Below are positions 144-24,630 of a stretch of DNA of 24,630 nt, piece after piece (position 1 is the first letter of the stretch; each line of letters starts with the position of its first letter). This DNA comes from a virus (Duplodnaviria > Heunggongvirae > Uroviricota > Caudoviricetes): the IMG/VR virus record IMGVR_UViG_2923318301_000004. The stretch is one strand, 5' to 3'. The notes under the pieces are model-generated. The model did no database searches. It was not told the DNA's origin and saw only the letters and a program-made list of their open reading frames with translations. The position numbers and the translations under genes were made by a program.

Positions 144-158
144 GGTAATGACTCCAAC

Positions 159-662: not shown

Positions 663-856
663 CCAACGCCATTCATGGCCATATCAATGATTTTCTGGTG
701 CGTACCGGGTTGAGAAGCGGTGTAAGTGAACTGCAGTTGCCATGTTTTACGGCAGTGAGAGCAGAGATAGCGCTGATGTCCGGCGGTGCTTTTGCCGTTA
801 CGCACCACCCCGTCAGTAGCTGAACAGGAGGGACAGCTGATAGAAACAGAAGCCAC
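581..856 (-). CDS. insA: IS1 InsA (zinc-finger/HTH regulator, N-terminal part of the InsAB' transposase)
   Basis: 91-aa [43 protein letters not shown]... with CxxC...CxxC zinc finger; recognised as IS1 InsA. Confidence 0.9.
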
Positions 857-1188
857 TGGAGCACCTCAAAAACACCATCATACACTAAATCAGTAAGTTG
901 GCAGCATCACCCACCAATGGATGCTTGCATTGCCAGCGCGGACAATAAAACGATTGCCCGACAAATGAACAAAACAGTGGAAATTTTGGTGGGGCCACAT
1001 CCGGAACAGTATGTCTGGGTTTTAAAATTGTTAAAAACACGCAAATCAAACGAAGCGGACCCGTACCCTTGAAATTATAAAGTACAAGTATTTCCACTAG
1101 TTGTTTGTAAGCGTACAGCCTGAACCGTCTGGTCAGAATCTGACGAATTAGACAAAGTGGTGTCCACCAAATAAGTAGTGGGAACCAA

Positions 1189-2435: not shown

Positions 2436-2539
2436 ACATTCCACCATGCATTACGATTAACGCCGCATAGCCAGTTGAACTTTGCTACTTTGTGAGAGGT
2501 AGTACCTTCTATCCAGTGCGAATTTAATTAATGGAATAA

Positions 2540-4543
2540 ATGATTATGAGTGAAAATGATACAATCCCAAAGAAGTCTACAAGTCAGATTAACAAAGCGG
2601 TATTCTTTACATCTGCTTTGCTAATTTTCCTTCTTGTCGCCTTTGCCGCCGTATTCCCGGATGTCGCCGACAAAAATTTTAAACTACTTCAGCAACAAAT
2701 CTTCACGAATGCCAGCTGGTTCTACATCCTTGCTGTGGCCCTGATTTTACTGAGTGTCACGTTCCTTGGACTCTCACGCTACGGTGATATCAAGCTGGGC
2801 CCGGACCATGCGCAGCCTGATTTCAGCTACCACTCCTGGTTTGCGATGCTTTTTTCGGCAGGGATGGGGATCGGCCTGATGTTCTTTGGCGTTGCCGAAC
2901 CTGTAATGCATTATCTTTCGCCACCCGTTGGCACTCCAGAAACCGTTGCGGCAGCTAAGGAAGCAATGCGTCTGACCTTTTTCCACTGGGGACTGCACGC
3001 ATGGGCAATTTATGCCATTGTGGCGCTGATTCTGGCGTTCTTCAGTTACCGTCACGGTCTGCCTTTAACTCTGCGCTCCGCACTCTATCCCATTATTGGC
3101 GATCGCATATACGGACCTGTAGGACATGCGGTTGATATTTTCGCTGTTATAGGCACGGTCTTTGGCGTTGCGACATCACTGGGTTACGGTGTTTTGCAGG
3201 TGAATGCCGGTTTGAACCATCTTTTCGGGGTGCCCATCAATGAAACGGTGCAGGTAATTCTGATCGTGGTCATCACGGGGTTAGCGACGATTTCAGTGGT
3301 GTCCGGTCTGGATAAGGGAATACGTATCCTGTCTGAACTCAATCTGGGTCTGGCTTTGTTGCTCCTGGCGCTGGTCCTGTGTCTGGGACCAACCGTGCTT
3401 CTGCTGAAGTCATTTGTGGAAAATACGGGCGGTTATCTTTCGGAACTGGTGAGTAAAACGTTCAACCTTTACGCGTATGAGCCCAAGTCGAGCAACTGGC
3501 TGGGGGGCTGGACATTACTGTACTGGGGATGGTGGCTTTCATGGTCGCCGTTTGTGGGGATGTTCATCGCACGGGTCTCCCGCGGGCGAACCATTCGCGA
3601 GTTTGTCACCGGCGTGCTGTTTGTTCCCGCGGGTTTTACGCTAATGTGGATGACGGTGTTTGGTAACAGCGCGATCTATCTCATTATGAACCAGGGGGCC
3701 ACAGACCTCGCCAATACTGTTCAGCAGGATGTGGCGCTGGCCCTGTTTAATTTCCTGGAGCATTTCCCGTTCTCTTCTGTGCTGTCATTCATTGCAATGG
3801 CGATGGTCATCGTCTTCTTTGTAACGTCTGCTGATTCGGGGGCAATGGTTGTGGATACTCTGGCATCAGGTGGAGTGGCAAACACACCCGTCTGGCAGCG
3901 AATATTCTGGGCCTCGCTCATGGGCATTGTTGCAATTGCGCTTCTCCTTGCCGGAGGGCTAAGTGCGCTGCAAACGGTGACAATAGCGAGTGCATTGCCC
4001 TTCTCAGTGATCTTACTAATATCTATATACGGACTTTTAAAAGCTTTGCGCCGGGATTTGACCAAGCGTGAAAGCCTGAGCATGGCGACAATTGCTCCTA
4101 CGGCTGCACGTAACCCAATTCCTTGGCAGAGAAGGTTACGCAATATCGCGTATCTGCCGAAGCGATCTCTTGTGAAACGTTTTATGGACGACGTTATCCA
4201 GCCTGCCATGACGCTGGTTCAGGAGGAACTGAACAAGCAGGGGACGATAAGCCACATTAGTGATGCAGTCGACGATCGTATTCGTCTTGAAGTCGATTTG
4301 GGCAACGAGCTGAATTTTATATATGAAGTGAGGCTTCGCGGGTATATCTCACCGACCTTCGCGCTCGCCGCAATGGATAATGATGAGCAGCAGACTGAAC
4401 AACATCGATATTATCGCGCTGAGGTTTATCTCAAAGAAGGCGGTCAAAATTATGATGTGATGGGCTGGAACCAGGAACAGCTGATTAATGACATACTGGA
4501 CCAGTACGAAAAACACCTGCACTTCCTGCACCTGGTTCGTTAA
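2540..4543 (+). CDS. BCCT-family (betaine/carnitine/choline) transporter, BetT-like with a long C-terminal cytoplasmic extension
   Basis: 667-aa ORF with many hydrophobic segments and BCCT signature stretches (WTLLYWGWWLSWSPFVGMFIARVSRGRTIREF; SADSGAMVVD); overall collinear with E. coli BetT as I recall it, including the roughly 170-aa hydrophilic tail. Confidence 0.85.
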   Translation: MIMSENDTIPKKSTSQINKAVFFTSALLIFLLVAFAAVFPDVADKNFKLLQQQIFTNASWFYILAVALILLSVTFLGLSRYGDIKLGPDHAQPDFSYHSWFAMLFSAGMGIGLMFFGVAEPVMHYLSPPVGTPETVAAAKEAMRLTFFHWGLHAWAIYAIVALILAFFSYRHGLPLTLRSALYPIIGDRIYGPVGHAVDIFAVIGTVFGVATSLGYGVLQVNAGLNHLFGVPINETVQVILIVVITGLATISVVSGLDKGIRILSELNLGLALLLLALVLCLGPTVLLLKSFVENTGGYLSELVSKTFNLYAYEPKSSNWLGGWTLLYWGWWLSWSPFVGMFIARVSRGRTIREFVTGVLFVPAGFTLMWMTVFGNSAIYLIMNQGATDLANTVQQDVALALFNFLEHFPFSSVLSFIAMAMVIVFFVTSADSGAMVVDTLASGGVANTPVWQRIFWASLMGIVAIALLLAGGLSALQTVTIASALPFSVILLISIYGLLKALRRDLTKRESLSMATIAPTAARNPIPWQRRLRNIAYLPKRSLVKRFMDDVIQPAMTLVQEELNKQGTISHISDAVDDRIRLEVDLGNELNFIYEVRLRGYISPTFALAAMDNDEQQTEQHRYYRAEVYLKEGGQNYDVMGWNQEQLINDILDQYEKHLHFLHLVR

Positions 4544-4605
4544 TAGCAACATGCCGTCCTGGGGGCGGCAATTATTATCCCGGCCGCAATATGAGGGAAT
4601 GCAGA

Positions 4606-5883
4606 ATGATTTCACGCTGGAAATGGATGCTGAAGCAGACAATTAAAAAACTATGGTTCAGGGCAACGTTATTCGCAATTGTCGCGATAATAACGGCCCT
4701 TTTATCAATTCTTTTTAAATCAATGATACCTGAGTCGGTTTCCGTGAAGGTTGGTGCGGAAGCAGTCGATAACATTCTGAACATACTGGCATCGAGTATG
4801 CTGGCAGTGACCACATTTTCGCTGAGTATCATGGTCACAGCCTACGGTTCAGCCACTACTAATGTGACTCCCAGAGCTACGCGTTTAGTTGTTGAAGACG
4901 TCACCACACAAAATGTACTGGCCACCTTCATCGGTTCTTTTCTCTTCAGTCTGGTAGGGATTATTGCCCTCAATATGGGAGCTTATGGAGAAAGGGGGAG
5001 AGTCATTTTATTCATTGTCACACTGGTTGTCATTGCCTTAATCCTCATCACATTGCTTCGCTGGATACAGCATTTGACCTCTCTGGGGAGGGTTGGTGAG
5101 ACAACGGCACAAGTAGAACAGGCGGCCATCGAAACATTTATTGCGAGAGCAAGAAATCCCTGTCTCGGTGGATATCCATGGCTTGAGAACAATGAACAGC
5201 CGAAAGGAACGGTTGCAGTTTATCCGAAGAAGATTGGCTATGTTGAATATATTGATATGGTGAAACTTAGCAAGCTGCTGACCAATGATCCCCGTCATGT
5301 ATACCTCGTGGCGCAGCCAGGCAGTTTCATACATCCGTCCATGCCAGTTTTGTACCTGAGTCAGGGCCAGGAGTCGTCAATCAACACCGATTTACTTGAG
5401 ACGATTATTGTCTCGGATGCACGTTCATTTGCTCAGGATCCTCGATTTTGTCTTAGCGTCATGGCCGAAATAGCCTGCCGGGCCCTTTCCCCTGCAGTGA
5501 ACGATCCTGGAACCGCCATTGATGTCATTGGCAGAGGTGTTCGTATACTTTCCACTTACGCGCAGAATAAATCTGATGAAATAGAAGTGAAATATCCTTC
5601 AGTACATGTTGCACCACTTCAGAATAACGATCTACTGGAAGACTTTTTCTCACCTGTCGCGCGCGATGGTGCCAGTATGAGGGAGATTCAGATAAGAGTC
5701 CTTAAAGGACTGTCGATGCTGAGTAAAGGTTGGCCTGAGATATTTGCTGAAGCCGCACATACCCTGGCATTTGAAACATTAGAGCATGCAACTCGTGCTG
5801 ACCATATAGATTCTGATAGATATCTAATAAAATCAACTTATTATAATTTATTTAGTGGCGAATATTCTAATAAAAAAACATAG
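4606..5883 (+). CDS. Membrane protein, DUF2254-like (function unknown)
   Basis: ORF with N-terminal transmembrane segments and a soluble C-terminal domain. Start placed at ATG 4606 (MISRWKW...) because GAGGGA lies 7 nt upstream; the six-frame track starts 15 nt earlier at 4591. The DUF2254 assignment is from memory of the family and is uncertain. Confidence 0.55.
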   Translation: MISRWKWMLKQTIKKLWFRATLFAIVAIITALLSILFKSMIPESVSVKVGAEAVDNILNILASSMLAVTTFSLSIMVTAYGSATTNVTPRATRLVVEDVTTQNVLATFIGSFLFSLVGIIALNMGAYGERGRVILFIVTLVVIALILITLLRWIQHLTSLGRVGETTAQVEQAAIETFIARARNPCLGGYPWLENNEQPKGTVAVYPKKIGYVEYIDMVKLSKLLTNDPRHVYLVAQPGSFIHPSMPVLYLSQGQESSINTDLLETIIVSDARSFAQDPRFCLSVMAEIACRALSPAVNDPGTAIDVIGRGVRILSTYAQNKSDEIEVKYPSVHVAPLQNNDLLEDFFSPVARDGASMREIQIRVLKGLSMLSKGWPEIFAEAAHTLAFETLEHATRADHIDSDRYLIKSTYYNLFSGEYSNKKT

Positions 5884-6162
5884 CTGCAGAGCAAGCAATT
5901 CGGTTGTTGGCAAGTCAAGGGCAAAGCATTCGCGTGAGAATGGGCGTATGCTTTGTGCCAAAAGCAAACGTTGCTAATTCTGCACTGTTCAGCGATGGCG
6001 CAGTAGAGACAGGCACTGCCACTGTCCAGTCGGCAAAAGCGAACACTTTGCCACTGCGGGGATAAACTGATTGAAGCTCTCGCGCAAAATCACTTATTCT
6101 TTTGCGTTAATAAAATGTAGGAGATGGGTCATTGATCCTACCCACGTAATATGGACACAGGC

Positions 6163-7029
6163 CTAAGCGAGGTTCTTGTTTTCAAATTGTTCCGGACTGA
6201 GGCCGCCACACCAACTGTGCCGCCGCCACCGATTGTAATCACATTCGATATAATTAAACACCGTTGCCCGCATTATTTCCCGGCTGATAAAGTGTTCTCC
6301 ATGGATACATTCCACTTTCAGCGAATGAAAGAAGCTTTCCACGCAGGCATTATCGTAGCAGCAACCTTTTGCGCTCATACTTCCACGCAGATTATGCCGC
6401 TTCAGTTGCGCCTGATAATCTGCTGAACAGTACTGGCCTCCACGGTCCGTGTGAACGATAACGTTCCGGGGCCTCTTACGCCGCCACAGCGCCATCTGCA
6501 GGGCATCGCAGGCCAGTTGCGCCGTCATGCGTGGCGACATTGACCAGCCAATAACGGCACGTGACCACAGGTCAATGACCACTGCCAGATACAGCCAGCC
6601 TTCATCTGTACGTAAGTACGTGATGTCTCCTGCCCACTTCTGGTTCGGGCCACTGGCGTAAAAATCCTGCTCCAACAGATTTTCTGACACAGGCAGGCCG
6701 TGTGCGCGGTAGCTGACCGGGCTGAACTTCCGGGAGGCCTTTGCCCTCAGTCCCTGACGGCGCAGGCTTGCCGCCACGGTTTTTACGTTAAAGGGGTAAC
6801 CCTGAGCACGCAGTTCATCCGTCAGGCGTGGGGCACCGTAACGCTGTTTTGACCGGGTAAAAGCCGCGAGGACAACGCTGTCGCAGTGTTGGCGGAACTG
6901 CTGACGCGTGCTTATCCTTGTCCGCCGCTGACACCACGTATACCAGCCGCTGCGGGCCACCCGGAGCACGCGGCACATTGCTTTGATGCTGAACTCAGCC
7001 TGATGTTTTTCAATAAAGACATACTTCAT
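6163..7029 (-). CDS. insF: IS3 OrfB (InsF) DDE transposase
   Basis: 288-aa [35 protein letters not shown]...; DDE motif region WAGDITY...HTDRGGQY...[12 protein letters not shown]. Confidence 0.9.
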
Positions 7030-7325
7030 TTCAGGCGCTTCGCGAAGTATGTCGCGGCCTTTTGGAGGATAGCCAGCTCTTCATCCCGTTCTGCCAGCTG
7101 GCGTTTGAGACGTGCAATCTCGGTAGACATCTCCAGTTCACGTTCAGAAGACGTCTGCTGATTTTGCTGTTTACTGCGCCAGTTGTAGAGTTGTGATTCA
7201 TACAGGCTGAGTTCACGGGCTGCGGCAGTAACACCGATGCGTTCAGCAAGCTTCAGGGCTTCACTGCGAAATTCAGGCGAATGCTGTTTACGGGGTTTTT
7301 TACTGGTTGATACTGTTTTTGTCAT
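7026..7325 (-). CDS. insE: IS3 OrfA (InsE)
   Basis: [54 protein letters not shown]...; start taken at the internal Met (MTKTV) rather than the ORF-track Met three codons upstream; overlaps insF by 4 nt (frameshift window). Confidence 0.88.
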
Positions 7326-7391
7326 GTGAGTCACCTCTGACTGAGAGTTTACTCACTTAGCCGCGTGTCCACTATTGCTGGGTAAGATCAC

Positions 7392-8451
<1,060 letters not shown>

Positions 8452-8455
<4 letters not shown>

Positions 8456-8869
8456 TGCCACTGCTGGATAAGCTGCGTGAGCAGTACGGGGTCGGACCGC
8501 TATGCAGCGAACTGCATATTGCCCCGTCAACGTATTACCACTGTCAGCAACAGCGACATCATCCGGATAAACGCAGTGCCCGTGCGCAGCGCGATGACTG
8601 GCTGAAGAAAGAGATACAGCGCGTATACGATGAAAATCACAAGGTATACGGTGTGCGTAAAGTCTGGCGTCAGTTGTTACGGGAAGGTATCAGAGTGGCC
8701 AGATGCACTGTGGCACGTCTCATGGCGGTTATGGGACTTGCCGGTGTTCTCCGGGGTAAAAAGGTCCGTACGACCATCAGCCGGAAAGCCGTTGCCGCAG
8801 GCGACCGCGTAAACCGTCAGTTCGTGGCAGAACGACCTGACCAGCTGTGGGTGGCTGATTTTACTTACG
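8452..8869 (+). pseudogene. IS629 OrfB transposase, 5' exon (interrupted by group II intron)
   Basis: [34 protein letters not shown]...QLWVADFTY then diverges at the intron 5' end (GTGTG at 8870). Confidence 0.8.
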
Positions 8870-9540
8870 GTGTGCCCGGAGTTCAGGGCGGGCATGGATG
8901 CTTAAATGAACCGCGAGTCTGTCTGGAATATTGAGCCGGTAACTCACGATGAGAAACCCAACAATCCCACCGGGTGTGACGGTGGAGAACCTGAGCGGCA
9001 GTGACCTGCGGCATGCCCGCAGGGTGATGTAACCCGCTGACAACGGGGATTGAGGCGAGATCACTAAGCCGAGATGATCCTCAAGGTTAAGTACTGAAAG
9101 GCTGAAGAACATGAACCCGTTAATCCGCCTCTGTGGGTTGAAAACGTCACCACGGCCTACGTGATCTGACAGGCCGTGCAGGAGGAACTGGCAGTGATAC
9201 GTAAGCACTGCCGGTCGAAGGTGTTTTGACATGTATGCGAAACACCGGGGCAGCAGCGTCTATCACGCTTGCGTTGCTGACTTCTGCCAACTTGCGGCAA
9301 GCAAGGATAAAGAGTGCGACGGGCAGCCTCCTCAGTATGCCTGAGTCCAGGCAGGTAAACCGGGGAAGGTCAGCGACGGATGTTAAGGGGGCATGGCTCC
9401 GATGACGCGCTGGCTGGCGGAGCTTCCGTAGTAGTCCGCGATGGGGAAAGCCCATTACATGGCGAAGGGAAGCAGTTTGAATGTGTTTGCGACGTGAATT
9501 AACTGACCTAACGAGGTGAAGACCTTTGATAATCAGCGAA

Positions 9541-11049
9541 ATGCAACGCAAGCTTGCCACATGGGCAGTCACCGATCCGTCCCTACGGATTCAACGGCTG
9601 CTGCGTCTGATAACACAACCAGAATGGCTGGCTGAAGCGGCGCGGATCACGCTTTCATCAAAGGGGGCCCATACCCCCGGCGTTGATGGCGTGAACAAAA
9701 CAATGCTACAGGCCAGACTGGCTGTTGAGCTGCAAATCCTCAGGGATGAATTACTCTCAGGCCACTACCAGCCCTTGCCCGCCAGACGGGTTTACATCCC
9801 TAAAAGCAACGGCAAACTGCGACCACTGGGTATCCCCGCGTTGCGGGATCGTATTGTTCAGCGGGCCATGCTGATGGCGATGGAGCCGATATGGGAGAGT
9901 GATTTTCATACGCTCTCATATGGCTTCCGGCCTGAGCGCAGTGTCCACCACGCGATCCGCACGGTGAAATTACAGCTCACAGACTGTGGTGAAACCCGGG
10001 GACGCTGGGTGATTGAAGGCGACCTGTCCAGTTACTTCGACACCGTACATCATCGACTGCTGATGAAGGCTGTACGCCGCAGGATCAGTGACGCACGTTT
10101 CATGACTCTGCTGTGGAAAACCATCAAGGCGGGACATATCGATGTCGGTCTCTTTCGGGCGGCCAGTGAAGGTGTGCCACAGGGCGGTGTTATATCGCCG
10201 CTATTATCGAACATCATGCTGAATGAGTTCGATCAATACCTGCATGAGCGCTACCTGAGCGGGAAAGCCAGAAAAGATCGGTGGTACTGGAATAACAGTA
10301 TCCAACGGGGCCGAAGTACGGCGGTCAGAGAAAACTGGCAGTGGAAACCCGCGGTGGCGTACTGCCGCTATGCCGATGATTTTGTCCTCATCGTCAAAGG
10401 CACCAAAGCACAGGCGGAAGCCATCAGGGAGGAGTGTCGGGGTGTGCTCGAAGGCAGTCTGAAACTCAGGCTGAACATGGATAAGACTAAAATCACCCAT
10501 GTTAATGACGGCTTTATCTTTCTGGGGCACAGGATCATTCGCAAACGCAGTCGTTATGGCGAGATGCGAGTGGTCTCAACGATCCCGCAGGAGAAAGCCA
10601 GAAACTTCGCCGCATCGCTGACAGCACTGTTATCAGGCAACTACAGTGAAAGCAAAGTCGATATGGCTGAACAACTCAACCGAAAACTGAAAGGCTGGGC
10701 CATGTTCTATCAGTTCGTTGATTTTAAGGCCAAAGTCTTCAGTTATATCGACCGTGTCGTGTTCTGGAAGCTGGCTCACTGGCTGGCCCGCAAATACCGT
10801 ACAGGTATCGCTTCCCTGATGAGGTGGTGGTGTAAATCACCGAAACCGGGTCAGAGCAAAACGTGGGTTTTATTTGGTAAAACCAATCACGGCAAGCTCA
10901 GCGGCGAAATACTGTACCGGTTGGTGGGGCAAGGCAAGAAGCTGTTCCGCTGGCGGCTACCCGAAGGTAATCCCTATCTGAGGACGGAGACCAGAAACAC
11001 GTATACATCGCGCTTTACAGAAGTGGCAATGGCGTTCGCCAGCATTTAA
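9541..11049 (+). CDS. Group II intron-encoded protein (reverse transcriptase/maturase)
   Basis: RT motifs in order (RPLGIPALRDRIVQ; SYGFRPERS; YCRYADDFVLIV) followed by a maturase (X) domain; start assigned to the first ATG (MQRKLATW...) rather than the TTG at 9526 used by the ORF track. Confidence 0.85.
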   Translation: MQRKLATWAVTDPSLRIQRLLRLITQPEWLAEAARITLSSKGAHTPGVDGVNKTMLQARLAVELQILRDELLSGHYQPLPARRVYIPKSNGKLRPLGIPALRDRIVQRAMLMAMEPIWESDFHTLSYGFRPERSVHHAIRTVKLQLTDCGETRGRWVIEGDLSSYFDTVHHRLLMKAVRRRISDARFMTLLWKTIKAGHIDVGLFRAASEGVPQGGVISPLLSNIMLNEFDQYLHERYLSGKARKDRWYWNNSIQRGRSTAVRENWQWKPAVAYCRYADDFVLIVKGTKAQAEAIREECRGVLEGSLKLRLNMDKTKITHVNDGFIFLGHRIIRKRSRYGEMRVVSTIPQEKARNFAASLTALLSGNYSESKVDMAEQLNRKLKGWAMFYQFVDFKAKVFSYIDRVVFWKLAHWLARKYRTGIASLMRWWCKSPKPGQSKTWVLFGKTNHGKLSGEILYRLVGQGKKLFRWRLPEGNPYLRTETRNTYTSRFTEVAMAFASI

Positions 11050-11053
11050 ATGG

Positions 11054-11087
11054 AGAGCCGGATGCGCTGAAAGGTGCACGTCCGGTT
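11054..11087 (+). ncRNA. Group II intron domain V (catalytic hairpin)
   Basis: GAGCCGGATGCGCTGAAAGGTGCACGTCCGGTTC: about 34 nt, AGC triad near the 5' end, 2-nt bulge, GAAA tetraloop, immediately after the IEP stop codon and about 50 nt from the intron 3' end. Confidence 0.65.
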
Positions 11088-11111
11088 CGGGGAGGAGAGG
11101 CAGGGAAATAG

Positions 11112-11612
<501 letters not shown>

Positions 11613-11654
11613 GTTCACAGATAAAACACTCTCCAGGAAACCCGGGGCGGTTCA

Positions 11655-12792
11655 CTCATCTGCCGCTCTACCGCATCCCTCGACCATAATCCCGACTCAA
11701 TCAACGAACTACAAGCCATCGTCCTGAAGCCATGCCCACAAACCTCGACCTTCGTGTCATACCCCATTACGCGCAAAGCCTTGTTCACCGTATTCTCACT
11801 CATCGGCTTACGTGGATCGTGATCGCCCACAAAAATCAGCTCTCAATTTCCGCTCATGCTTTTGATCTTTTCCAAAATACTTAGGGCCTGCCGCGACAAA
11901 GGTACAAGGTGTGGTGTCCGCATCTTCGAGCCACGCTGAGAATGCTTGACTCCTTCCAGTTGCTCACGCTCACCTGGGATTGTCCACATAGCCGTTTCAA
12001 AATCTACTTCTGACCAGCGGGCAAAATGCAGCTCGCTCGAACGGATGAAAACCAATAAAGTGAGTTCAACCGCCAGCCGAGTTAACGGTCTGCCAGAATA
12101 GTGATCTATGCGATGAAGTAATTCAGGTATACGGTTCAGTTCAAGAGCTGCACGGTGCTGTCTTTTCGCCGTAGCAACCGCACCTGCAATCTCTTGCGCG
12201 GGGTTGTAGTCGATTAAGCCGCTCTGAACGGCAAAGCGCATAATCGCGGTAGTACGCTGCTGTAAACGGGCGGCAACTTCGAGCCGCCCGGATGACTCGA
12301 CTGCTTTAATGGGTACAAGAAGATCCCGCGTCTTCAGTTCCGCAATGTTCCGCTTACCGATAGCAGTAAAGAGATTATCCTCCAGACTTTTCAAAACACG
12401 AGCGCTATGCGATGCCGACCACTTCTGATTGCTGGCGTGCCAGTCTCTGGCGACTACTTCAACGTTATCGCCTCTTGTTCCTGTTCTACCTTAACAGCTT
12501 TCTTGTTTTCACTGGGATCGACACCATTAGCTAAAAGCTTACGAGCCTCATCCCGGCGTGCCCTGGCATCCGCCAACGACACTTCGGGGTATTTCCCCAA
12601 TGCCAGCATCTTCTCTTTACCGCCAAAGCGATAACGTAGCCGCCAGTATTTGGAGCCGTTAGGGTGAACCAGCAAAACCATGCCTTCACCGTCGGTCAGC
12701 TTATAGGCTTTTGCTTCAGGCTTAGCCGAACGAACCTTCACATCACTCAGAGCCATGATGAGTATCCTTTCAAGGGTTCTGTGTGGGTACAA
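11655..12792 (-). pseudogene. P4-type tyrosine integrase pseudogene (frameshifted, C-terminus removed by IS629)
   Basis: Three consecutive minus-strand ORF pieces (12454-12792 N-terminus MALSDVKVRSAKPEAKAYKLTDGEGMVLLVHPNGSKYWRLRYRF...; 11843-12394; 11615-11830) together cover a P4-like integrase but in different frames; the last piece abuts the IS629 end. Confidence 0.8.
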
Positions 12793-12976: not shown

Positions 12977-13210
12977 TAACTATATAACTCATTGAACATG
13001 ATGATAAAAATTTTATAGCTTATGACTTGTGCCCCATTTTGTGCCCCCAACAAAATCTTATTGTTGCTAACTAGCACAATAAATGAATTAGCAAGATAGA
13101 GTTGCCTAGTTAGGTTCCGTCTTACAGAGCCTAACCAGAACAACCAAACCTCTGAACCAACCTTGCGCAAGCTAGATAAAGTCATGCTGATTTATTAGGA
13201 CAACAAGCTA

Positions 13211-14143
13211 TTAAATTTCATATTTTGAAATTTCGCTGATTACATCATCCCCATATTTCTTAATCATGGAGGCAAAGAATTTATGTTCAATAAATTTCGC
13301 ATAGCCTAATTCTCCTTTAAGGGTTAGAATTTCTTTCTCAGATAAAACCCCACACACATAATAATGTATTTTACTTCTTAAAAGACGCTTTCTATCACGA
13401 CCTAAAGACAAATAACCATCAGTCGTAATAGTTACACCAGTTACATGTCTATTAAACTTCCTTGAGGTAAAAACTGTTTTCTCATGGTTTATTTTAATAT
13501 TCCTAAGATTTACTACGTTAAGAACTTCCCTTACTAACTTAGGAACATCAAATAAAGCTCCTTTGACTTTGGTGCTAAACGTAAGATCATCAGCATACCT
13601 TGAGTAGGTAATACCCAAATCCTTGCATCTTTTCGATATTTCCTCATCGAAGAAATACATTACTGTATTTGAAATAATGGGAGAAGAAGGTGCTCCAACA
13701 CTTAGGCGTAACGGGCTATTTCTTCTTAACTTCCAGAAGAAAAGATTTTTAAGAACAAAGATATCAGTATCAGTTAGTTCAACGCCATAATCTTTTAAGA
13801 CAGATAAAAGATTATGGGGTTTGATACTCATAAAAAAGTTTTTAAAATCCATTTTAAGCAAATAATCATTATTACAATGCATTAACGCATTAGATCTAAT
13901 ACTTTTATCGGCTTCATAAGCGAAAGCATTTTCATGAACTTTCAAATTAGCCAACATATGATTGATTACTACCTTCTGTAAGGCTTTAACTTGCCTAGCT
14001 GGTTGTGCAATTAATCTATATCCATTACCATTTCTTTTGGCGATAGGATAAATTTTATATCTGCGTGGAATAGTAACAATATACCTTTTAGCCTCTTCTT
14101 CGCTAAGAAAAAGACCTTTTGAAATATAACTTAGCAACTCCAT
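13211..14143 (-). CDS. Retron-type reverse transcriptase
   Basis: About 310 aa, RT domain only (no maturase or endonuclease); motifs SNALMH (NAxxH), FKNFF, VGAPSSP, YSRYADDLTFS (YADD) and NRHVTGVTI (retron VTG); start ATG lies 1 nt after the upstream effector stop (TAGaATG); collinear with Ec86 RT as I recall it. Confidence 0.85.
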   Translation of the reverse strand: MELLSYISKGLFLSEEEAKRYIVTIPRRYKIYPIAKRNGNGYRLIAQPARQVKALQKVVINHMLANLKVHENAFAYEADKSIRSNALMHCNNDYLLKMDFKNFFMSIKPHNLLSVLKDYGVELTDTDIFVLKNLFFWKLRRNSPLRLSVGAPSSPIISNTVMYFFDEEISKRCKDLGITYSRYADDLTFSTKVKGALFDVPKLVREVLNVVNLRNIKINHEKTVFTSRKFNRHVTGVTITTDGYLSLGRDRKRLLRSKIHYYVCGVLSEKEILTLKGELGYAKFIEHKFFASMIKKYGDDVISEISKYEI

Positions 14144-14144
14144 T

Positions 14145-15131
14145 CTAAGCCCCTCCACGCACGATATTGATTTGATTTAGAGCATTTTTCCTTTTTTTTG
14201 CAGTCTCGTCCATATCTTTAGCATCCATACTTAAGTAAGATTGTCGGATTGCAACCTTAATATTCATAGAATCCTTTATTTTACCACTAGCACTGATACC
14301 AAATTTAAGTTTACTCTCTCTATGCCCTCGGGAATAGAAGTAGTCTGTACCACTGTAAGATAATGATGAGGTTAATTTCATCTTTTCAAGCAAATAAAGT
14401 AAACGAGTTATTATTTTTTGTGGCACATCTATATCCATACAGTATAGTGCCCACTCTATTTCGCTTTTCTTGATTGGTTCTGATAAAAGGATTATTTCGT
14501 AAATCAATATAGCTAGGTGCCCAGTATTTTCAGGGTTATATCGCTCCGTTTTTTTTACACGTTTTAATCTAGAATGAATATCATGGTAGATAAGCTCAAC
14601 CTCATCATATTTCATACGATCCGATTTTGGCCATGGATAAACTGATACTGAGGCCTCATCTATTTTTTTAAGATACTCCAAAGGGCCTAAATATATAAAA
14701 GAAGATCTAGCAGGAATATTTTTTCGTTCATTTCCCTCAATCTCCTCAAATGGTGCGACTACATGCAATTTTTGAGCTAGAGACTTCCTATTAACAAATA
14801 ATCCAAGCTCAACTAACGAACCTGCACTTTCTAAACAGATAACAACTAATGTTGAAATATTTGCAATATCATCTTCAAAGCTCATTAGATCTGAATATGC
14901 CCCCTCTCTGAAGTAGTCATGGAAGTTCTCAGCTAAAATAAGAGAATCTGACAATTCAGGTTTGTGGCCTGCTACATAAGTAAATATGTGGTCTCGTACA
15001 CTCATTGGAGTGGAATTTATCGGCCCACCACAAACAAAAATAATAGGAGGCATGAACTGAACAGTGAAATTTGAATATTTCAAATCTCCAAACTGCTCTT
15101 GTAATGCATTCATATATGCAGAATCACTCAC
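14145..15131 (-). CDS. Retron effector, putative nucleoside 2-deoxyribosyltransferase-like (NDT) domain plus C-terminal putative DNA-binding domain
   Basis: 328-aa ORF between the structured non-coding region and the RT; N-terminal region PPIIFVCGGPI...ICLESAGSLVELGLF resembles the Rossmann-like NDT fold with a candidate catalytic Glu; likely GTG start at 15131 with AGGGGGT as RBS (alternative ATG at 15113). AT-rich codon usage like the RT. Confidence 0.6.
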   Translation of the reverse strand: MSDSAYMNALQEQFGDLKYSNFTVQFMPPIIFVCGGPINSTPMSVRDHIFTYVAGHKPELSDSLILAENFHDYFREGAYSDLMSFEDDIANISTLVVICLESAGSLVELGLFVNRKSLAQKLHVVAPFEEIEGNERKNIPARSSFIYLGPLEYLKKIDEASVSVYPWPKSDRMKYDEVELIYHDIHSRLKRVKKTERYNPENTGHLAILIYEIILLSEPIKKSEIEWALYCMDIDVPQKIITRLLYLLEKMKLTSSLSYSGTDYFYSRGHRESKLKFGISASGKIKDSMNIKVAIRQSYLSMDAKDMDETAKKRKNALNQINIVRGGA

Positions 15132-15139: not shown

Positions 15140-15420
15140 CCCCCTACTCCAAAAGAAAAGGTGGCTAACCAGCCACCTTCGACCCCTTTACCTAAAGGAT
15201 GCGCTTTAGACTTTCAGCAAGATCCTGAATGGAACGCAGTGGCATGAAGGATCTTGCTGAAAGTGCTAAAGCGCAACCCTAAATGTCCACAATAAATTAG
15301 TGTCTGGCGAAACGCCCGACAAGGATAAACCTGTTATCCCGCGCGTAAAGGTAGGGTTAGGATAGCAAAAGATGCGAGATTTTCAATAAGTAAGCGTACT
15401 GGCTGCCAGCAACCACCTAA
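15140..15420 (-). ncRNA. Candidate retron ncRNA (msr-msd) upstream of the effector/RT operon
   Basis: Non-coding, structure-rich stretch immediately 5' of the effector: long imperfect hairpin 15201-15274 (GCGCTTTAG.CTTTCAGCAAGATCC / GGATCTTGCTGAAAG..CTAAAGCGC), a candidate msd stem; second hairpin 15159-15180. Exact ends and a1/a2 repeats not resolved by eye. Confidence 0.45.
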
Positions 15421-15700
15421 ACCATTGACATTTAAACAAAAATAAATCTAACAATTGAAAGCAATACCTTATTGAATACAGCATTCTTATATCTCTCTTG
15501 ATATCGCAACATCACAATTATCACCGTTAGTGCGGGCAGCCCCGCACGCCTGCCCGCTTCGCTTAACAGACTGGTTTTCATGCACCTCATTAATCGTCTC
15601 AGAAGCCAGCACACAAGGGTTTTCTCGTCAAAAATGGTGCATAAGACTCATGCGTTTTCATGCGCCATAGACATGCACTCATGCGCTCTCATGTCAGCCA

Positions 15701-15758: not shown

Positions 15759-16040
15759 TCAGACAGGAATCTGCTGACGGCTTGACAGTTTTGACGCGGA
15801 GCCATAGCGATTGAGCGTTTTCTGTTGTTTTTCCGGGGATTGTGCTTTGTCTGATAGCTGTTCATTGCGCCGGGGTTTCATGATTATCTTATCCACACTC
15901 TCCAGTGCCGTAAATGTGCAGGAACATTCCAGATTCTGGCACTGATACCACGAGCGTTTAACTGACGGAGCTTCATAGGCTGCTGTTCTGGCGTGTGCAA
16001 CTGTACCGCATTCCGGACATTTAAGTGCCATTAATATCAC
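15759..16040 (-). CDS. ogr: Ogr/Delta-family zinc-finger late-gene transcriptional activator
   Basis: ALKCPECGTVAHARTAAYEAPSVKRSWYQCQNLECSCTFTALESVDKIIMKP has the CxxC-(22)-CxxxxC pattern and spacing of P2 Ogr/P4 Delta; start may be the internal Met at 16031. Confidence 0.8.
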   Translation of the reverse strand: MILMALKCPECGTVAHARTAAYEAPSVKRSWYQCQNLECSCTFTALESVDKIIMKPRRNEQLSDKAQSPEKQQKTLNRYGSASKLSSRQQIPV

Positions 16041-16588
16041 TCCTGTATATCGTTAATGTCATTCAGGCGTTGCTGAAAACGCAGATGTTGTGCCGGGGTG
16101 TAAGAACCCTGGCAATCACGAATCATCCCGGGGTCAGGCATCAAACCGGATTCATCCAGGATCTCACGATAATCCCCGGCAATTTCAGGCGGTGTTATTG
16201 CCAGCTGGCGAACCAGAGCACTGCGTAATATACGGGACGCAACGTCAACCCCTCCGCGCCCCTTCAGGAACGGAGCCAGTGCAGATGTCAGGGCTGCCCC
16301 ATTCGCCTGCATAAAATTGCTGAGAGCGGCTTCTGTGCAGGCCTCCATCAGTAAATGCTGCGAGTAAATGCATTCGCGCGCAGCACAGTTAATTTGCCAT
16401 TTCAGCACATCCAGACGTTCCCGCAGTAATTCGAGCTGTCGGGCATAATCTGCTGGTTTTTCTGTGGCAGCGAGGAGAGATGTTATCTGTTGTTCAACGG
16501 CTTTTCGGCTCTCATTATGTCCGGCCCACAGAATACGGGCATTCCGAAAACTGGTAAGTGCCTGGTCAGGCGTGCCTCGGGCCGTCAT
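16037..16588 (-). CDS. psu: Psu-like protein (P4 polarity suppression / capsid decoration)
   Basis: 183 aa; segments LELLRERLDVLKWQINCAARECIYSQHLL, FMQANGAALTSALAPFL and YTPAQHLRF resemble P4 Psu as I recall it; start overlaps the sid stop. Confidence 0.65.
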   Translation of the reverse strand: MTARGTPDQALTSFRNARILWAGHNESRKAVEQQITSLLAATEKPADYARQLELLRERLDVLKWQINCAARECIYSQHLLMEACTEAALSNFMQANGAALTSALAPFLKGRGGVDVASRILRSALVRQLAITPPEIAGDYREILDESGLMPDPGMIRDCQGSYTPAQHLRFQQRLNDINDIQE

Positions 16589-17728: not shown

Positions 17729-20401
17729 TTAACCCGGCACCTCGCTGTTGAAGACATAGAGCCTGCGGGGATTCATCTCTGGCGGGCGAATGGTTGTCTG
17801 GAGTTTGCCATCAGTGGAGGGCAGCAGGTATCCACGATCTGCGCACAGACGCGCCACCTTGCGCGGGTCAAATCCCCTGCAGATTTCTTTCCAGCCGGAC
17901 GGCATGACATAGAACGTAGTGACAGCTTCCGTGCCCTGCGCGGTACTGCCTTTCTCCACCCTGCGCCAGCCCACCATATTGCCGGGGCGGTTGCGCTCGT
18001 CATACCAGTCTGCAAAGCGGCTGTACTGATTCGCGGTAAAGAAACTGCGAACCTGCTCCAGTGCGGCGATATCTTCCTGATTGGCGGTGTGCCCGCGATC
18101 TTTCAGCCATGCGTTCAGGCAGACGCGGGTTGCCCGCAGTGCTTCACCCTCAGGCCAGCCGGTGATACCCAGACGGGTTGCCAGTTCACCTGCCATCGCC
18201 ACCAGAGCAAAGCGGTTCACAGCCCGGCCCACCTGATTGCCTGCATCTTTCGGAGTCAGGGCGGCAGCATATTCCTTCATCAGCGATTTTGCCTGTGCCG
18301 TTAGTCCGTTAAGATCAGCGGTCAGTGCTTTCAGCCACTCCCGGAACGGCGAACCGTAGTAGCAGGACGTGGCCCATTCAAGATGCTCTGCCAGAGCCTT
18401 GCCGCTGTCGAAGCCGTGCAGCTCCTCAAAAACGCCAAACTTCCCGGAATCGCTGGGGATCTGGATCATCCTGACTTCCATCCCGGCAAAAGTACGCTCA
18501 CCGGCCTTTGCCGCATGTTCGGTCAGAGACAACTCGCCAGTTGAAAAGAACAACAGGCGCCAATGCTTACGGGTACGCAGCTCACCGTCCGTACCGGCAC
18601 GGCCCTTGCCCTGACCGTTTGCCAGCATGTAGGCGATATTGCCTGCCTCGCGTCCGTCAACTTCCCGGATCTCATCAAGCATCATGGCGGCATCGTTGCG
18701 GCGGCTGGCGCATCCCTCCAGCGCGTTGCCGGTGGCCCGCCATGTCTGCCAGTAGTCAGGCCCGCCGCAGACGGAGGTTGCCGCTTTCATGGTGGTGGTC
18801 TTACCGTCTGTCGATTCCCCTTTGAGGTGGTAGCCGCCGCCGTCCATACCAACCAGCCGTAACAGTGGTGCAGCAAAGGCCAGGCTGACAGCAAATGCCA
18901 CGCGGGAGTTGCCGGTACAGTAGCGGGATACATGCTCCCGCCATTCCTCTGTTGTGCCCGACACGCGGAAATCACGCCCCTGCACGGAAGTGGTCTGGAG
19001 AATGACACCCTCTGCACCTTCACCGCTGACCTCATCCTGCAGGACGTAAACCTGACCATGCCAGCCAGTACGACTGACGCAGGTCACGCGGCGTTCCGGT
19101 TTACACAGTGAGATATATTCCATCAGGCGTGCGCGTGCCTCACCGGTGGTGCTGATATAAGACAGCCCGTTAACCAGCAATACCCGGCGCAGTTCCTCAC
19201 CACTGCCGCTCAGCATTTCCATCGGCATCGCCCAGCGGCGACACTCACCCCACGTATCTTCCCATTCCAGCAGTCGTCCGAAGTTACCGCCATCGGCATC
19301 GCAGGTGATTGCCGTCACGCGCAGCGGGCTGCATATTTTGACGTTCTGGATCTCCGTCTCACCGTTGCGCTGTACCTGCTTTTCATACCAGAGATATTCC
19401 TGGGTAAGACGGAACCCGTGCGGCAGTTGCGTGCGGCCCTCCCCGCACAGCACCAGACCGTTACGAAAGGCTTCACGGGCGCGGGTAATACCGTGCTCCC
19501 GATGGAAGTCATTCCAGTCGGCCTTAATCTCTCCCGGTGGCAGCGTCATCCAGCCGCCAACAGCTTTTGCCGCCCGTTCAGCAAAGGCTCTGCCGGGATT
19601 CTCACCCCCGTCCTGAAAATCGTTATCACCGGCGATGATAATTTTTACCTCAGGCCAGCGTGCCCGCAGCGACTGCGCCACATTGGGCAGGTTGCCCGCA
19701 GATATGGCAGCCACTACGCATCCGGCAGTGAGCTGACTTACCGTCAGCGCCGTAGCGTAACCTTCGGTAATCACCACCTGTACCGGTGGTTCAGACGGTA
19801 ACGGGCTGAGCGACACAAACGCGCCTTTCATCGTGCTGCCGGGCAGTATGCTTTTTTCACCCGTCGGGGCGATAAGCTGTGCACCAGTCACGGCTCCGGT
19901 GTTGGTCGTGAGTGGTAACAGCAGGGAACCGGCAGGAAAATCCTTACCGCTGATATGCTGCACGCTTCCGGTCAGAGAGGCCGGGTATCCGGCGAACCCT
20001 TTTCCTGTCAGATAGGCGCTTTCTCCCGTGTGGCTCTCTTTCATCAGCGCCGCCACGGTAAGACCCATGTCGCGTTTAGGGGCTTTTTTTCTGGCAGGCT
20101 TAACAGGCAGTTCCTGCACATCCGGCACATTAAGCACCTGCGCCACCTCCTGCGCAGCCTTTCTGACGCTGTAACCGGTTACGAGCTTAACCAGATCCAG
20201 ACCGTCACCATTGCCACACTGGCTGCAGATCCACGTCCCGCGCCCGTCAAGGTCATCAAGGCGAAAACGATCCTTGCCCCCACATTTCGGGCAGGGACCG
20301 TGCCTGCCGTTTTCAGGTACATCAATACGCAGCATCTGGAGAATAACGGGCCATTTCCCCCGTGCGGCGGCTGAAATCTGCGTAACCGTCTGTATTGTCA
20401 T
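17729..20401 (-). CDS. P4 alpha-like primase-helicase (zinc-binding N-terminus, TOPRIM primase, C-terminal P-loop helicase)
   Basis: 890 aa; CPKCGGKDRFRLDD...WICSQCG zinc ribbon; TOPRIM-like VVITEGYATALT...IIAGDNDFQDGGENPG; Walker A GESTDGKTT. Confidence 0.85.
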   Translation of the reverse strand: MTIQTVTQISAAARGKWPVILQMLRIDVPENGRHGPCPKCGGKDRFRLDDLDGRGTWICSQCGNGDGLDLVKLVTGYSVRKAAQEVAQVLNVPDVQELPVKPARKKAPKRDMGLTVAALMKESHTGESAYLTGKGFAGYPASLTGSVQHISGKDFPAGSLLLPLTTNTGAVTGAQLIAPTGEKSILPGSTMKGAFVSLSPLPSEPPVQVVITEGYATALTVSQLTAGCVVAAISAGNLPNVAQSLRARWPEVKIIIAGDNDFQDGGENPGRAFAERAAKAVGGWMTLPPGEIKADWNDFHREHGITRAREAFRNGLVLCGEGRTQLPHGFRLTQEYLWYEKQVQRNGETEIQNVKICSPLRVTAITCDADGGNFGRLLEWEDTWGECRRWAMPMEMLSGSGEELRRVLLVNGLSYISTTGEARARLMEYISLCKPERRVTCVSRTGWHGQVYVLQDEVSGEGAEGVILQTTSVQGRDFRVSGTTEEWREHVSRYCTGNSRVAFAVSLAFAAPLLRLVGMDGGGYHLKGESTDGKTTTMKAATSVCGGPDYWQTWRATGNALEGCASRRNDAAMMLDEIREVDGREAGNIAYMLANGQGKGRAGTDGELRTRKHWRLLFFSTGELSLTEHAAKAGERTFAGMEVRMIQIPSDSGKFGVFEELHGFDSGKALAEHLEWATSCYYGSPFREWLKALTADLNGLTAQAKSLMKEYAAALTPKDAGNQVGRAVNRFALVAMAGELATRLGITGWPEGEALRATRVCLNAWLKDRGHTANQEDIAALEQVRSFFTANQYSRFADWYDERNRPGNMVGWRRVEKGSTAQGTEAVTTFYVMPSGWKEICRGFDPRKVARLCADRGYLLPSTDGKLQTTIRPPEMNPRRLYVFNSEVPG

Positions 20402-23367: not shown

Positions 23368-24630
23368 TTATTTTCCATGCATACGCGCAAAATCATATGG
23401 TGTGACAGATCCATTCTTATTAGCATCAATATAATCAGCCCACCACTGCAGCATTAATCTTCTTTCTTCAAGATATTCGGAAGTATGCATATATGAACCT
23501 TTCACATTTTTTCGTTCAACGTGGCTTAACTGTCTTTCAATGGCATCATCATTCCATAGTTTCGACTCACTTAGCGCACCACGCGCCATAGTTCTAAACC
23601 CATGACCACATACTTCAGTTTTCGTATCATATCCCATTACACGTAAGGCGTTATTTACTGTATTTTCACTCATTACTTTTTTAGGATCATGATCGCTGGG
23701 AAATATAACCTCACCTTTACCACTCAAGGCATGTAAACGTTTAAAAATATCAAATGCTTGTTTGCTAAGCGGAACAATATGTTCAGTTTTCATCTTCATC
23801 CCACGCTCAGAGTGTTTTACGCCGGGAATAGGCTTACGAATTCCGGGTATTGTCCACTCGCTTCGTTCAAAGTTAACCTCACTCCAGCGAGCAAAACGCA
23901 TCTCACTTGAACGTATAAATGTGAGTAGCGTTAATTCAACGGCAAGCCGTGTCATTAGTCGCCCTTTATAGCGTGATAGTCTTTCAAGAAGCTCAGGGAT
24001 TCTTTTTGGGGGTAGTGCTGGGTGGTGGGTTGCTTTAACGCTTAAAAGCGCTCCAGCCATATCGCATGCAGGATTTGATTCAAGGAGGTCATTCTGCACA
24101 CCAAAACGCATAATTGCGGTTACGCGCTGCATCAGTCGCTGCGCGACATCATGTTTACCCGCCGTATCGACAGCTTTGATTGGATTGAGAAGCTGGCTGG
24201 TTCTCAACGTTCTGGCATCGATTTGACCTATCGAGGGGAAAATATACTGCTCAAGTGTCAGCAGAACACGACGGCTATGATCTTCGCTCCAAGTAAGGTT
24301 ACTTGCGTGCCATTGCCTTGCGATAGTTTCAAATAAATATGCCCCCTCAATTTCAGCTTGTGCCCCCTTTTGCTCAGCTTTGGGGTCAATACCCTGAGAC
24401 AACAATTTCTTTGCTGCATCGCGCTTACCCCGCGCTTCAGCCAAAGTGACCGTCGGGTATACACCAAAAGCGAGTCGATCTTCCTTTTTGTCAGAGGGGC
24501 GGCGATATTTCATGCGCCAGTACTTAGAACCTTTAGGGGAGACCTCAAGATACAAACCGCCTCCATCAGCCATTTTATAAGCTTTCTCTTTCGGCTTTGC
24601 GGTCTCTATCTGGCGAGCGTTGAGTTTCAT
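23368..24630 (-). CDS. int: P4-type tyrosine integrase (intact, 420 aa); start codon at the window edge
   Basis: N-terminal AKPKEKAYKMADGGGLYLEVSPKGSKYWRMKYR... and C-terminal catalytic region (HGFRTMARGAL...; ...YMHTSEYLEERR) typical of the P4/IntA family. Confidence 0.9.
   Translation of the reverse strand: MKLNARQIETAKPKEKAYKMADGGGLYLEVSPKGSKYWRMKYRRPSDKKEDRLAFGVYPTVTLAEARGKRDAAKKLLSQGIDPKAEQKGAQAEIEGAYLFETIARQWHASNLTWSEDHSRRVLLTLEQYIFPSIGQIDARTLRTSQLLNPIKAVDTAGKHDVAQRLMQRVTAIMRFGVQNDLLESNPACDMAGALLSVKATHHPALPPKRIPELLERLSRYKGRLMTRLAVELTLLTFIRSSEMRFARWSEVNFERSEWTIPGIRKPIPGVKHSERGMKMKTEHIVPLSKQAFDIFKRLHALSGKGEVIFPSDHDPKKVMSENTVNNALRVMGYDTKTEVCGHGFRTMARGALSESKLWNDDAIERQLSHVERKNVKGSYMHTSEYLEERRLMLQWWADYIDANKNGSVTPYDFARMHGK

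Follow-up and report, generated by a model that had tools for sequence, protein, structure and literature searches.

[quoted passage not shown] It has been published for both that the reverse transcriptase (RT) copies the msd from the branching G and that RNase H removes the template, and that Exo VII trims four nucleotides off the 5′ end, so that unbranched msDNA is set free. Production of msDNA from msrmsd-Eco9 has been published, and needs both RNase H and Exo VII. The RT and the mature msDNA together form the antitoxin of RcaT. The published triggers act on the msDNA hairpin, namely Dam methylation of its GATC duplex (Sen2) and degradation by RecE (Sen2 and Eco9), while RacC blocks the toxin. 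Retron-Eco9 protects against T7, a phage whose kinase counteracts it (PMC13645617).

Identity of the retron

The window, by which we mean the whole 24,630-nt stretch of DNA that was analyzed (IMG/VR record IMGVR_UViG_2923318301_000004), carries a retron on its minus strand. We aligned to it the Eco9 primers listed in Supplementary Table 5 of Bobonis et al., and all seven map colinearly and in the right orientation between 15380 and 13165:

15380-15354, primer JB370, 'start of msr-Eco9'
15128-15101, primer JB368, rcaT start
15025-15053, primer JB390, +107 of rcaT
14140-14157, primer JB369, rcaT end
14143-14113, primer JB391, RT start
13211-13250, primer JB392, RT end
13165-13188, primer JB371, downstream flank

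The primer text departs from the window only by dropped letters and one substitution, consistent with a machine-read PDF. Serines 155, 181, 254 and 292 of RcaT-Eco9 have been studied (PMC13645617), and all four positions are serine in the effector of the window when this is numbered from M7; at a serine content of 9.8% the probability of this by chance is about 1e-4. The operon order msrmsd-rcaT-rt is also that of Retron-Eco9, and nothing substantively different was detected. We take the retron of the window to be Retron-Eco9 or a nearly identical copy; the comparison is by short primers and serines, and a few SNPs are possible. What has been published on the production of msDNA from Eco9 applies to the window only by way of this identity. 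A literature search with the RT accession WP_000422112.1 and a 19-nt stretch of the msr found nothing.

We therefore regard it as close to certain that the segment 15386-15151 on the minus strand comprises the promoter, the msr-msd ncRNA gene and the trailing terminator of Retron-Eco9, a type II-A retron of the St85/Sen2 family lying in a defence hotspot within a P4-like satellite. The element is already known, having been published and experimentally characterized by others as a type II-A retron toxin/antitoxin defence system, and its description here has little weight as a discovery. The practical value is one of annotation. The ncRNA is left blank by RefSeq, and the Rfam msr and STnc400 models miss the Eco9 clade at their gathering thresholds. 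The coordinates given below for promoter, a1, branching G, stem-loops, msd, a2 and terminator make the ncRNA annotatable in about 3% of complete E. coli genomes.

Retron-Sen2 has the same type II-A msr-msd, NDT-like RcaT and RT, and the same ncRNA layout. Sen2-like loci share with the window the base of the msd stem (TTAGGGTTGCGC...GCGC.TCC.T.TAG), stem-loop 2 with its UUU loop, the TTATTG linker, a terminator after a2, and a GATC duplex in the msd stem. They differ in the a1/a2 repeats (CCTTTAC/GTAAAGG in the window and CTCTTTA/TAAAGAG in the Sen2-like loci), in stem-loop 1 and in the upper msd stem, with identities of about 76-78% in the msr, 65-71% in the msd and 49% in the RT. For three Sen2-like loci (L003, L006 and L008) the RT identity with the window is 48-49%; the published identities between Eco9 and Sen2 are 49% for the RT and 43% for RcaT.

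Retron-Eco1 (Ec86) and Retron-Eco3 (Ec73) belong to the same type II-A class, with an RT and a St85-family NDT-like effector, the effector order having been compared for Ec73. The similarity to Ec86 is distant, with E = 1e-30 only for the RT, and E = 2e-6 for the effector whose structure has been solved in filament complexes (PDB). The a1/a2 repeats of Ec86 are 12 nt in length, and those of the window are shorter at 7 nt. Ec73 is likewise carried by a P4-like element, phiR73. This shared context, an RT of about 316 aa and a 9-bp stem with a 3-nt loop had led us to suspect Ec73 itself, but the flanks of its msd taken from published primers (TAGTATTTTAGCTATGCCCGTCGTT and ATCGACGTGCTCAAGTAGGTTT) are absent from the window, which rules it out.

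The retron and its neighbors

The protein-coding genes of the retron, and those that place it in its context, are as follows.

14145-15131, minus strand, effector/toxin gene RcaT-Eco9 (NDT-like, St85-family), 328 aa from GTG or 322 aa from the ATG at 15113
13211-14143, minus strand, retron RT gene (RrtT/RT-Eco9), 310 aa (PADLOC RT_II-A, 7.9e-121; Pfam RVT_1)
15759-16040, Ogr_Delta (Pfam), P4-like satellite gene upstream of the retron
16037-16588, Psu (Pfam), P4-like satellite gene upstream of the retron
17729-20401, Toprim/DUF927 primase (Pfam), P4-like satellite gene upstream of the retron
11843-12792, fragments of a broken P4-type integrase (Pfam), downstream of the retron

PADLOC matches the effector ORF to NDT_II-A (1.8e-87), and RefSeq names its product 'retron St85 family effector protein'. 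The RT corresponds to a RefSeq entry (WP_000422112.1, 'retron St85 family RNA-directed DNA polymerase'). Both proteins are annotated in RefSeq, where there is no annotation over the ncRNA region. The order on the minus strand is ncRNA (15352-15185), effector (15131-14145) and RT (14143-13211), so that the RT lies immediately downstream of the ncRNA on the same strand with an NDT-like effector between them; this is the type II-A layout. A preliminary description of the region had put two hairpins on the minus strand 5′ of the effector, and this is indeed where both lie with respect to the effector and RT ORFs alike.

Upstream of the retron the P4-like genes include in addition a Psu-related Sid-like gene. 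Downstream, the integrase that adjoins the retron is a pseudogene, frameshifted and truncated, and abutted by IS3 and group II intron sequences. The satellite has an intact integrase at its far end, and in strain M217 a tRNA-Leu lies just beyond that integrase. The arrangement of delta, retron and integrase is common to relatives. Cargo of the P4-like defence hotspot described by Rousset et al. (PMC9122126) is required to lie between psu/delta, next to cos, and the integrase, and this is the position of the retron. Thus, with P4-like genes upstream and a broken P4-type integrase downstream, the retron is located in the P4 defence hotspot. A 60-aa ORF at 15432-15614 has no family match in PADLOC or Pfam, and is treated as spurious.

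How widely is the ncRNA region distributed? Of 5426 complete E. coli genomes, 156 have the 301-bp region, at one locus each, and in 154 of these it is at least 99% identical. A second 'place' per genome that appears in a sensitive search is the palindrome matching its own sequence on the opposite strand. Being single-copy, the region is neither a dispersed repeat nor a generic terminator. The preliminary description had noted that sharing of the long hairpin with unrelated loci would count against a retron; the hairpin is specific to this locus, and none was found at loci without a retron RT. In a phage collection there was no DNA match, and matches to the RT are of at most 43% identity.

The state of the adjoining integrase raises the question of whether the retron itself has decayed and is inactive in the source strain, given that its P4-like host element is degraded, with a frameshifted and truncated integrase and with IS and group II intron sequences inserted alongside. 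We consider this very unlikely. The RT and effector ORFs are intact, and the RT is identical to a RefSeq protein that at least 1000 contigs encode. The near-identity of the ncRNA region in the 154 genomes also argues against decay, the promoter, a1/a2, branching G and all the helices described below are intact, and the sequence matches the functional Eco9 constructs.

Architecture of the ncRNA

The elements of the ncRNA, in the order in which they would be transcribed, are these.

15359-15386, minus strand, predicted sigma-70 promoter of the ncRNA, with -35 TTGAAA at 15386-15381, a 16-nt spacer and TG-extended -10 TATCCT at 15364-15359
15345-15351, minus strand, a1 inverted repeat CCTTTAC, pairing with a2
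15344, minus strand, predicted branching (priming) G directly 3′ of a1, whose 2′-OH would prime reverse transcription
15322-15340, minus strand, msr stem-loop 1, GGGATAA / TTATCCT (MFE fold)
15301-15321, minus strand, msr stem-loop 2, TGTC-G-GGCG UUU CGCC-A-GACA (MFE fold)
15281-15300, minus strand, single-stranded linker of 20 nt with a near-invariant TTATTG at 15295-15290
15193-15280, minus strand, msd template hairpin, comprising the stem 15280-15196 and the last template bases, with a bulged C and one GATC per arm
15185-15191, minus strand, a2 inverted repeat GTAAAGG, with G15192 just 5′ of it opposite the branching G
15151-15180, minus strand, intrinsic-terminator-like hairpin GAAGGTGGCT GGTT AGCCACCTTT followed by a T-run, 4 nt after a2

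The starting point of the preliminary description was a 74-nt imperfect hairpin at 15201-15274, taken as a candidate msd stem-loop. The hairpin is real. As single-stranded DNA it folds with -28.6 kcal/mol, compared with -8.7 ± 2.0 kcal/mol for dinucleotide shuffles (z = -9.9; none of 200 shuffles as good), and a repeat search recovers its arms as 15210-15231/15243-15264 (22 nt, 91%) and 15197-15209/15266-15278 (13 nt, 92%). The stem reaches beyond the ends first noted, to 15280-15196/15193, and with this lower stem included the DNA fold of 15192-15283 has an energy of -32.2 kcal/mol (z = -9.9). At the RNA level, the whole minus-strand segment 15140-15420 folds with z = -6.0, and the unconstrained MFE fold of 15360-15149 is the canonical architecture of a retron ncRNA.

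The 7-nt a1 and a2 form a perfect inverted repeat, and pair with each other in the unconstrained MFE fold. Their absence would have spoken against a retron in the preliminary description, which could place neither these repeats nor the branching G; both can now be placed, the repeats at 15351-15345/15191-15185 and the predicted branching G at G15344. Two other perfect 7-nt inverted repeats arise by chance in the same 381 nt. Since the helix is of 7 bp only, with chance repeats of equal length nearby, the assignment rests on position, conservation and covariation. The pairing is complete (100%) in 11 close relatives, with one double change from C-G to U-A (in Yersinia and Serratia) and one wobble. 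In a wider alignment of 72 rows made with a covariance model there are compensatory changes in all seven pairs, and 95.5% of cells are paired. We do not claim a longer a1/a2 helix, in which 15357-15355 would pair with 15184-15182 across a 3-nt bulge, as these extra 3 bp are 67% paired in relatives. The MFE fold of a longer RNA also pairs AACCCTA (15358-15352) with TAGGGTT (15281-15275). This is kept by only the two or three closest relatives, by means of wobbles, and lies mostly upstream of the predicted transcription start; we treat it as a chance pairing.

G15344 is predicted to be the branching G from its position. It is invariant in 11 of 11 close relatives, aligns to position 9 of Rfam msr and is unpaired in the MFE fold. 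In most loci of the covariance-model alignment, among them Sen2-like loci in which the msr starts ACTCTTTAGCG, a1 is followed by G.

The promoter is predicted from a scan with 9 of 12 matches plus the TG, and no other convincing promoter was found by the scan in the region. Its -10 block, T(T)G-N-TAT-N-CT, and -35 block, ATTGA, are kept in relatives. Transcription of the ncRNA is predicted to start at about 15352, right at a1.

Both msr stem-loops are well supported in the alignments. In stem-loop 1, 93% of cells are paired in the close relatives, and in the wide alignment each of the six pairs has compensatory changes. Stem-loop 2 is paired in 98.9% of cells in the close relatives, where a U-A to A-U swap is seen, and in 93% in the wide alignment, and it is here that the match to Rfam msr is best. 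For Ec86 and Ec73, the RT has been found to bind an 8-9-bp stem closed by a 3-base loop (PMC6868368). One of the conserved and covarying msr stem-loops of the window fits that description; this is stem-loop 2 with its UUU loop, the probable hairpin for recognition by the RT. In the linker that follows, TTATTG is invariant in the 11 close relatives and largely kept in distant loci. By analogy with Ec86 and St85, the linker is probably the region where the 3′ end of the msr and the 3′ end of the msDNA form a hybrid and where the RT terminates.

The msd stem contains six compensatory pairs in the close relatives, and in the wide alignment compensatory changes extend to every one of its 27 modelled pairs. 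Around the long hairpin a1/a2, G15344 and the msr stem-loops are all conserved and covarying, and the role first proposed for it, that of the msd stem-loop of a retron msr-msd, is supported.

Covariation in related loci

The close relatives are loci with RTs 56-78% identical to that of the window, fetched singly by exact-protein look-up, from Enterobacter, Phytobacter, Pantoea, Salmonella, Proteus, Providencia, Morganella, Pectobacterium, Yersinia and Serratia. We then aligned the stretch lying 5′ of each effector, giving 11 sequences. The -10 block, a1 and the G that follows it, both msr hairpins, TTATTG, the base of the msd stem and a2 are all kept. For the structure named above the paired fraction is 91.2% of cells, and in 16 pairs both sides have changed. 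None of 500 shuffles reaches the observed value, and in controls where the structure was slid along the alignment 34-52% of cells are paired.

A search of genome contigs for the RT gave only RTs of at most 51% identity. We built a covariance model from the close-relative sequences and searched 80 distant RT loci with it. In about 65 of the 80, which are St85-family retron loci, there is a full-length match (model positions 1-174) on the strand of the RT and upstream of the effector and RT, usually about 1-1.2 kb upstream of the latter, and the RTs of these loci are 34-51% identical to that of the window. The resulting wide alignment of 72 rows contains double changes in all 53 modelled pairs, with 91.5% of cells paired and a covariation score of 0.64 compared with 0.08-0.10 in slid controls; because the rows were fitted to the model the pair counts are inflated towards the structure, yet the margin is still very large.

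The a1/a2 repeats occur in two dialects, ...CTTTAC-G with GTAAAG... and CTCTTTA-G with TAAAGAG. In each of them a1 is followed directly by a G, and another G immediately precedes a2 and faces the branch G. The Sen2-like loci use the second dialect; their msr starts ACTCTTTAGCGTTAG, in agreement with the published Sen2 msr primer.

Relationship to Rfam families

A covariance-model search for a known retron ncRNA, suggested in the preliminary description, yields two contiguous matches. In a permissive scan Rfam msr (RF00170) matches 15352-15286 on the minus strand with 42.2 bits, where the gathering threshold is 52 (E = 7e-6), and STnc400 (RF02058) matches 15281-15145 on the same strand with 55.4 bits, where the threshold is 80 (E = 1e-9). 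Thus neither family reaches its gathering threshold in the window. Other loci of the Eco9 clade are likewise sub-threshold, while in the three Sen2-like loci named above both families pass, head-to-tail; the models appear to be tuned to the Sen2 clade. The E-values and the contiguous tiling of the two matches still indicate homology.

RF02058 is typed as an sRNA gene in Rfam, which allows another reading of the region, that 15281-15145 encodes an independent trans-acting sRNA (the gammaproteobacterial STnc400) and not a template for reverse transcription. The terminator close to a2 would provide such an RNA with a discrete 3′ end. Yet in all the loci examined the STnc400 match begins 3-5 nt beyond that of msr, with a retron effector and RT downstream of it, and msDNA is known from published work to be made from msrmsd-Eco9. 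We therefore find an independent sRNA extremely improbable, although the RNA may have an extra regulatory role. The constant association with the msr, the effector and the RT instead shows what Rfam lists as the 'sRNA' STnc400 to be the msd-plus-terminator half of the St85-type retron ncRNAs, and it is as such that we read it in the window.

A terminator-like hairpin after a2

The second hairpin of the preliminary description, a 9-bp stem ahead of the effector, exists as a perfect inverted repeat (15158-15166/15171-15179), but the part given to it in the msr-msd does not stand. It lies after a2, outside the msr-msd, and by its sequence pattern it is an intrinsic-terminator-like element. A terminator scan defines it as 15180-15157, with 10 pairs of which 5 are G-C, a loop of 4 and the tail TCTTTT (z = -5.9), and this is the sole terminator-like site in the region. 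As a G+C-rich hairpin with a T-run directly after it, it fits the pattern of a Rho-independent terminator.

Six of its pairs show compensatory changes among the close relatives. Of the 14 best distant loci, 11 have a hairpin with a T-run that starts 0-5 nt after a2, and in a 12th it starts at 13 nt; the stem sequences of these hairpins are unrelated. Overall such an element follows a2 in 17 of 67 loci, the window included, compared with 3 of 67 control windows. The terminator probably makes the ncRNA the main transcript, with rcaT and rt expressed by read-through.

A terminator at this position also bears on whether the two hairpins might have nothing to do with a retron, and be generic terminators or dispersed palindromic (REP-like) elements situated in the interval from the P4 delta gene to the effector. 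It is true that the short hairpin fits the pattern of an intrinsic terminator, and long palindromes can end convergent or upstream transcripts. The long hairpin, however, is without a T-run, and its stem covaries; the msr, a1/a2 and branching G are kept even where the RTs are 34-51% identical; and in all 156 E. coli genomes that have it the region is single-copy and always accompanied by a St85-family effector and RT. A generic origin is so improbable as to be negligible, and we retain the reading of the long hairpin as msd and of the short one as the trailing terminator.

A model for the function of the locus

Taken with the published work on Sen2 and Eco9, this architecture suggests how the retron of the window would operate. 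Pairing of a1 (15351-15345) with a2 (15191-15185) would bring the 2′-OH of G15344 beside the 3′ end of the msd template. The RT (13211-14143) would recognize the msr stem-loops, prime from G15344 and copy the msd hairpin, starting at about 15193 and proceeding towards about 15285-15289, with RNase H stripping the template along the way. This would yield an msDNA of about 90-97 nt, folded as a long DNA hairpin, the 5′ end of which would be trimmed by Exo VII to give the mature msDNA, as published for Sen2 and Eco9. The complex of RT and msDNA would then act as the antitoxin, keeping the RcaT effector (14145-15131) inactive, and modification or degradation of the msDNA hairpin by phage functions would release the toxin, so that the infection is aborted. 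Most transcripts would probably end at the hairpin and T-run after a2, leaving the ncRNA in excess over the read-through mRNA of effector and RT.

The ends of the msDNA can be predicted from its relatives. In Ec86 the G located 5′ of a2 faces the branch G and stays uncopied, and by analogy the first templated base of the msDNA would be A15193 or G15192. From the layout of the Sen2 type, synthesis is expected to stop near 15285-15289. With these predicted ends the primary msDNA would be about 90-97 nt.

The GATC site of the msd

The msd hairpin of the window carries a complete GATC/GATC Dam duplex site, at 15253-15250 and 15224-15221. At the same site nine of ten close relatives, and nine of the better-scoring distant loci, have GATC opposite GAGC, a conserved mismatch. 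This T/G switch recurs in both the Eco9-like and the Sen2-like clades. It might tune the methylation of the msDNA sensor by host or phage Dam, and hence the threshold at which the toxin is triggered; separately, the conserved terminator after a2 might work as an attenuator and so set how much ncRNA (antitoxin) is made relative to toxin/RT mRNA. We put forward these two suggestions tentatively, as rather unlikely.

A Dam site in the msd stem

GATC is present on both arms of the stem of the msd, the long template hairpin, at 15253-15250 and 15224-15221 (minus strand), which would give the msDNA hairpin of the window retron a complete Dam duplex site. The Sen2-like retron loci L003 and L008 resemble the window in this respect, with a full GATC/GATC Dam site in the msd stem. 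In Sen2 the retron effector, the toxin RcaT, is triggered by Dam methylation of a GATC duplex site in the msd hairpin (Bobonis et al.). The 3′ arm is GAGC, not GATC, in nine of the ten close relatives and also in nine of the better-scoring distant loci (alignments A3 and A5). The GATC/GAGC combination thus generates a conserved mismatch within the site, with pair 113/152 unpaired in 10 of 11 sequences, and the GATC/GAGC switch is recurrent among relatives.

STnc400 and the 3′ end of the non-coding RNA

The Rfam family RF02058, ‘STnc400’, is typed as a gammaproteobacterial sRNA. Tandem matches to the Rfam models of the msr (the preceding half of the ncRNA) and STnc400 occur in the window and in three Sen2-like loci:

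15352-15145, minus strand: window
1821-2020: L003
1808-2000: L006
1804-2005: L008

In every locus examined, STnc400 starts 3-5 nt past the msr match, and a retron effector and RT lie downstream. In St85-type retrons, STnc400 corresponds to the msd hairpin, the 3′ inverted repeat a2 and the terminator that follows them. The Eco9 clade falls below the gathering thresholds of both models.

The trailing element is an intrinsic-terminator-like hairpin with a T-run:

15180-15151, minus strand: window; equivalent position in L002-L014, L024, L059, L069 and L070

Most gammaproteobacterial members of the family have it, with a start 0-5 nt after a2, and it is largely absent, on the same criterion, from alphaproteobacterial, betaproteobacterial and acidobacterial members. 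The stem sequences are unrelated between loci, and thus it is the structure that is conserved rather than the sequence.

The effector start codon

Two starts compete for the effector:

15131, minus strand: GTG, giving 328 aa; used by RefSeq and the 2020 primer
15113, minus strand: ATG, giving 322 aa; fits the residue numbering of the 2026 Nature paper (PMC13645617)

The N-terminus (G/T)TG-AGT-GAT is conserved in relatives, so the upstream start is favoured on sequence grounds.

Surroundings of the retron

The interval that separates the delta gene from the retron promoter contains GGCGTGCGGGGCTGCCCGCAC (~15550-15530, minus strand), with GCAGGCGGGTGCGGTGTAGTGC at the equivalent position in relatives. 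We take GGCGTGCGGGGCTGCCCGCAC to resemble the P2/P4 cos cohesive-end region. The P4 hotspot has been reported to adjoin cos (PMC9122126), and a cos-like sequence near the retron would agree with this. The cos-like sequence is overlapped by an ORF in the same interval that has no Pfam or PADLOC match and is probably not a gene:

15432-15614, minus strand: 60-aa ORF

Two integrase regions were found:

within 11618-12792, minus strand: P4-type integrase pseudogene adjoining the retron
12454-12792, minus strand: its Arm-DNA-binding fragment
11843-12394, minus strand: its frameshifted, truncated core, abutting the IS3/intron block
23368-24630, minus strand: second integrase, intact, at the opposite end of the satellite

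A tRNA-Leu lies just past the window end in strain M217, beside the intact integrase. Together, the pseudogene by the retron, the distant intact copy and the tRNA-Leu suggest a tandem or rearranged island.

The adjoining block is an IS3-family element interrupted by a group II intron (8151-11612, plus strand):

~8151-8868 and 11133-11612, plus strand: transposase fragments flanking the intron (M217 annotation)
8410-8526, plus strand: IS3 programmed-frameshift ALIL pseudoknot
9526-11049, plus strand: ltrA RT/maturase of the intron
11053-11139, plus strand: Intron_gpII, Rfam match just 3′ of ltrA

The left third of the window (1-8841) is not colinear with M217, which has lpxM-virK-capU-deacetylase at the corresponding place. 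IS-mediated rearrangement is likely here, and the region contains:

159-662: IS1 transposase
1253-2392 and 6163-7029: IS3-family transposases
2540-4543: BCCT transporter
4591-5883: DUF2254 membrane protein
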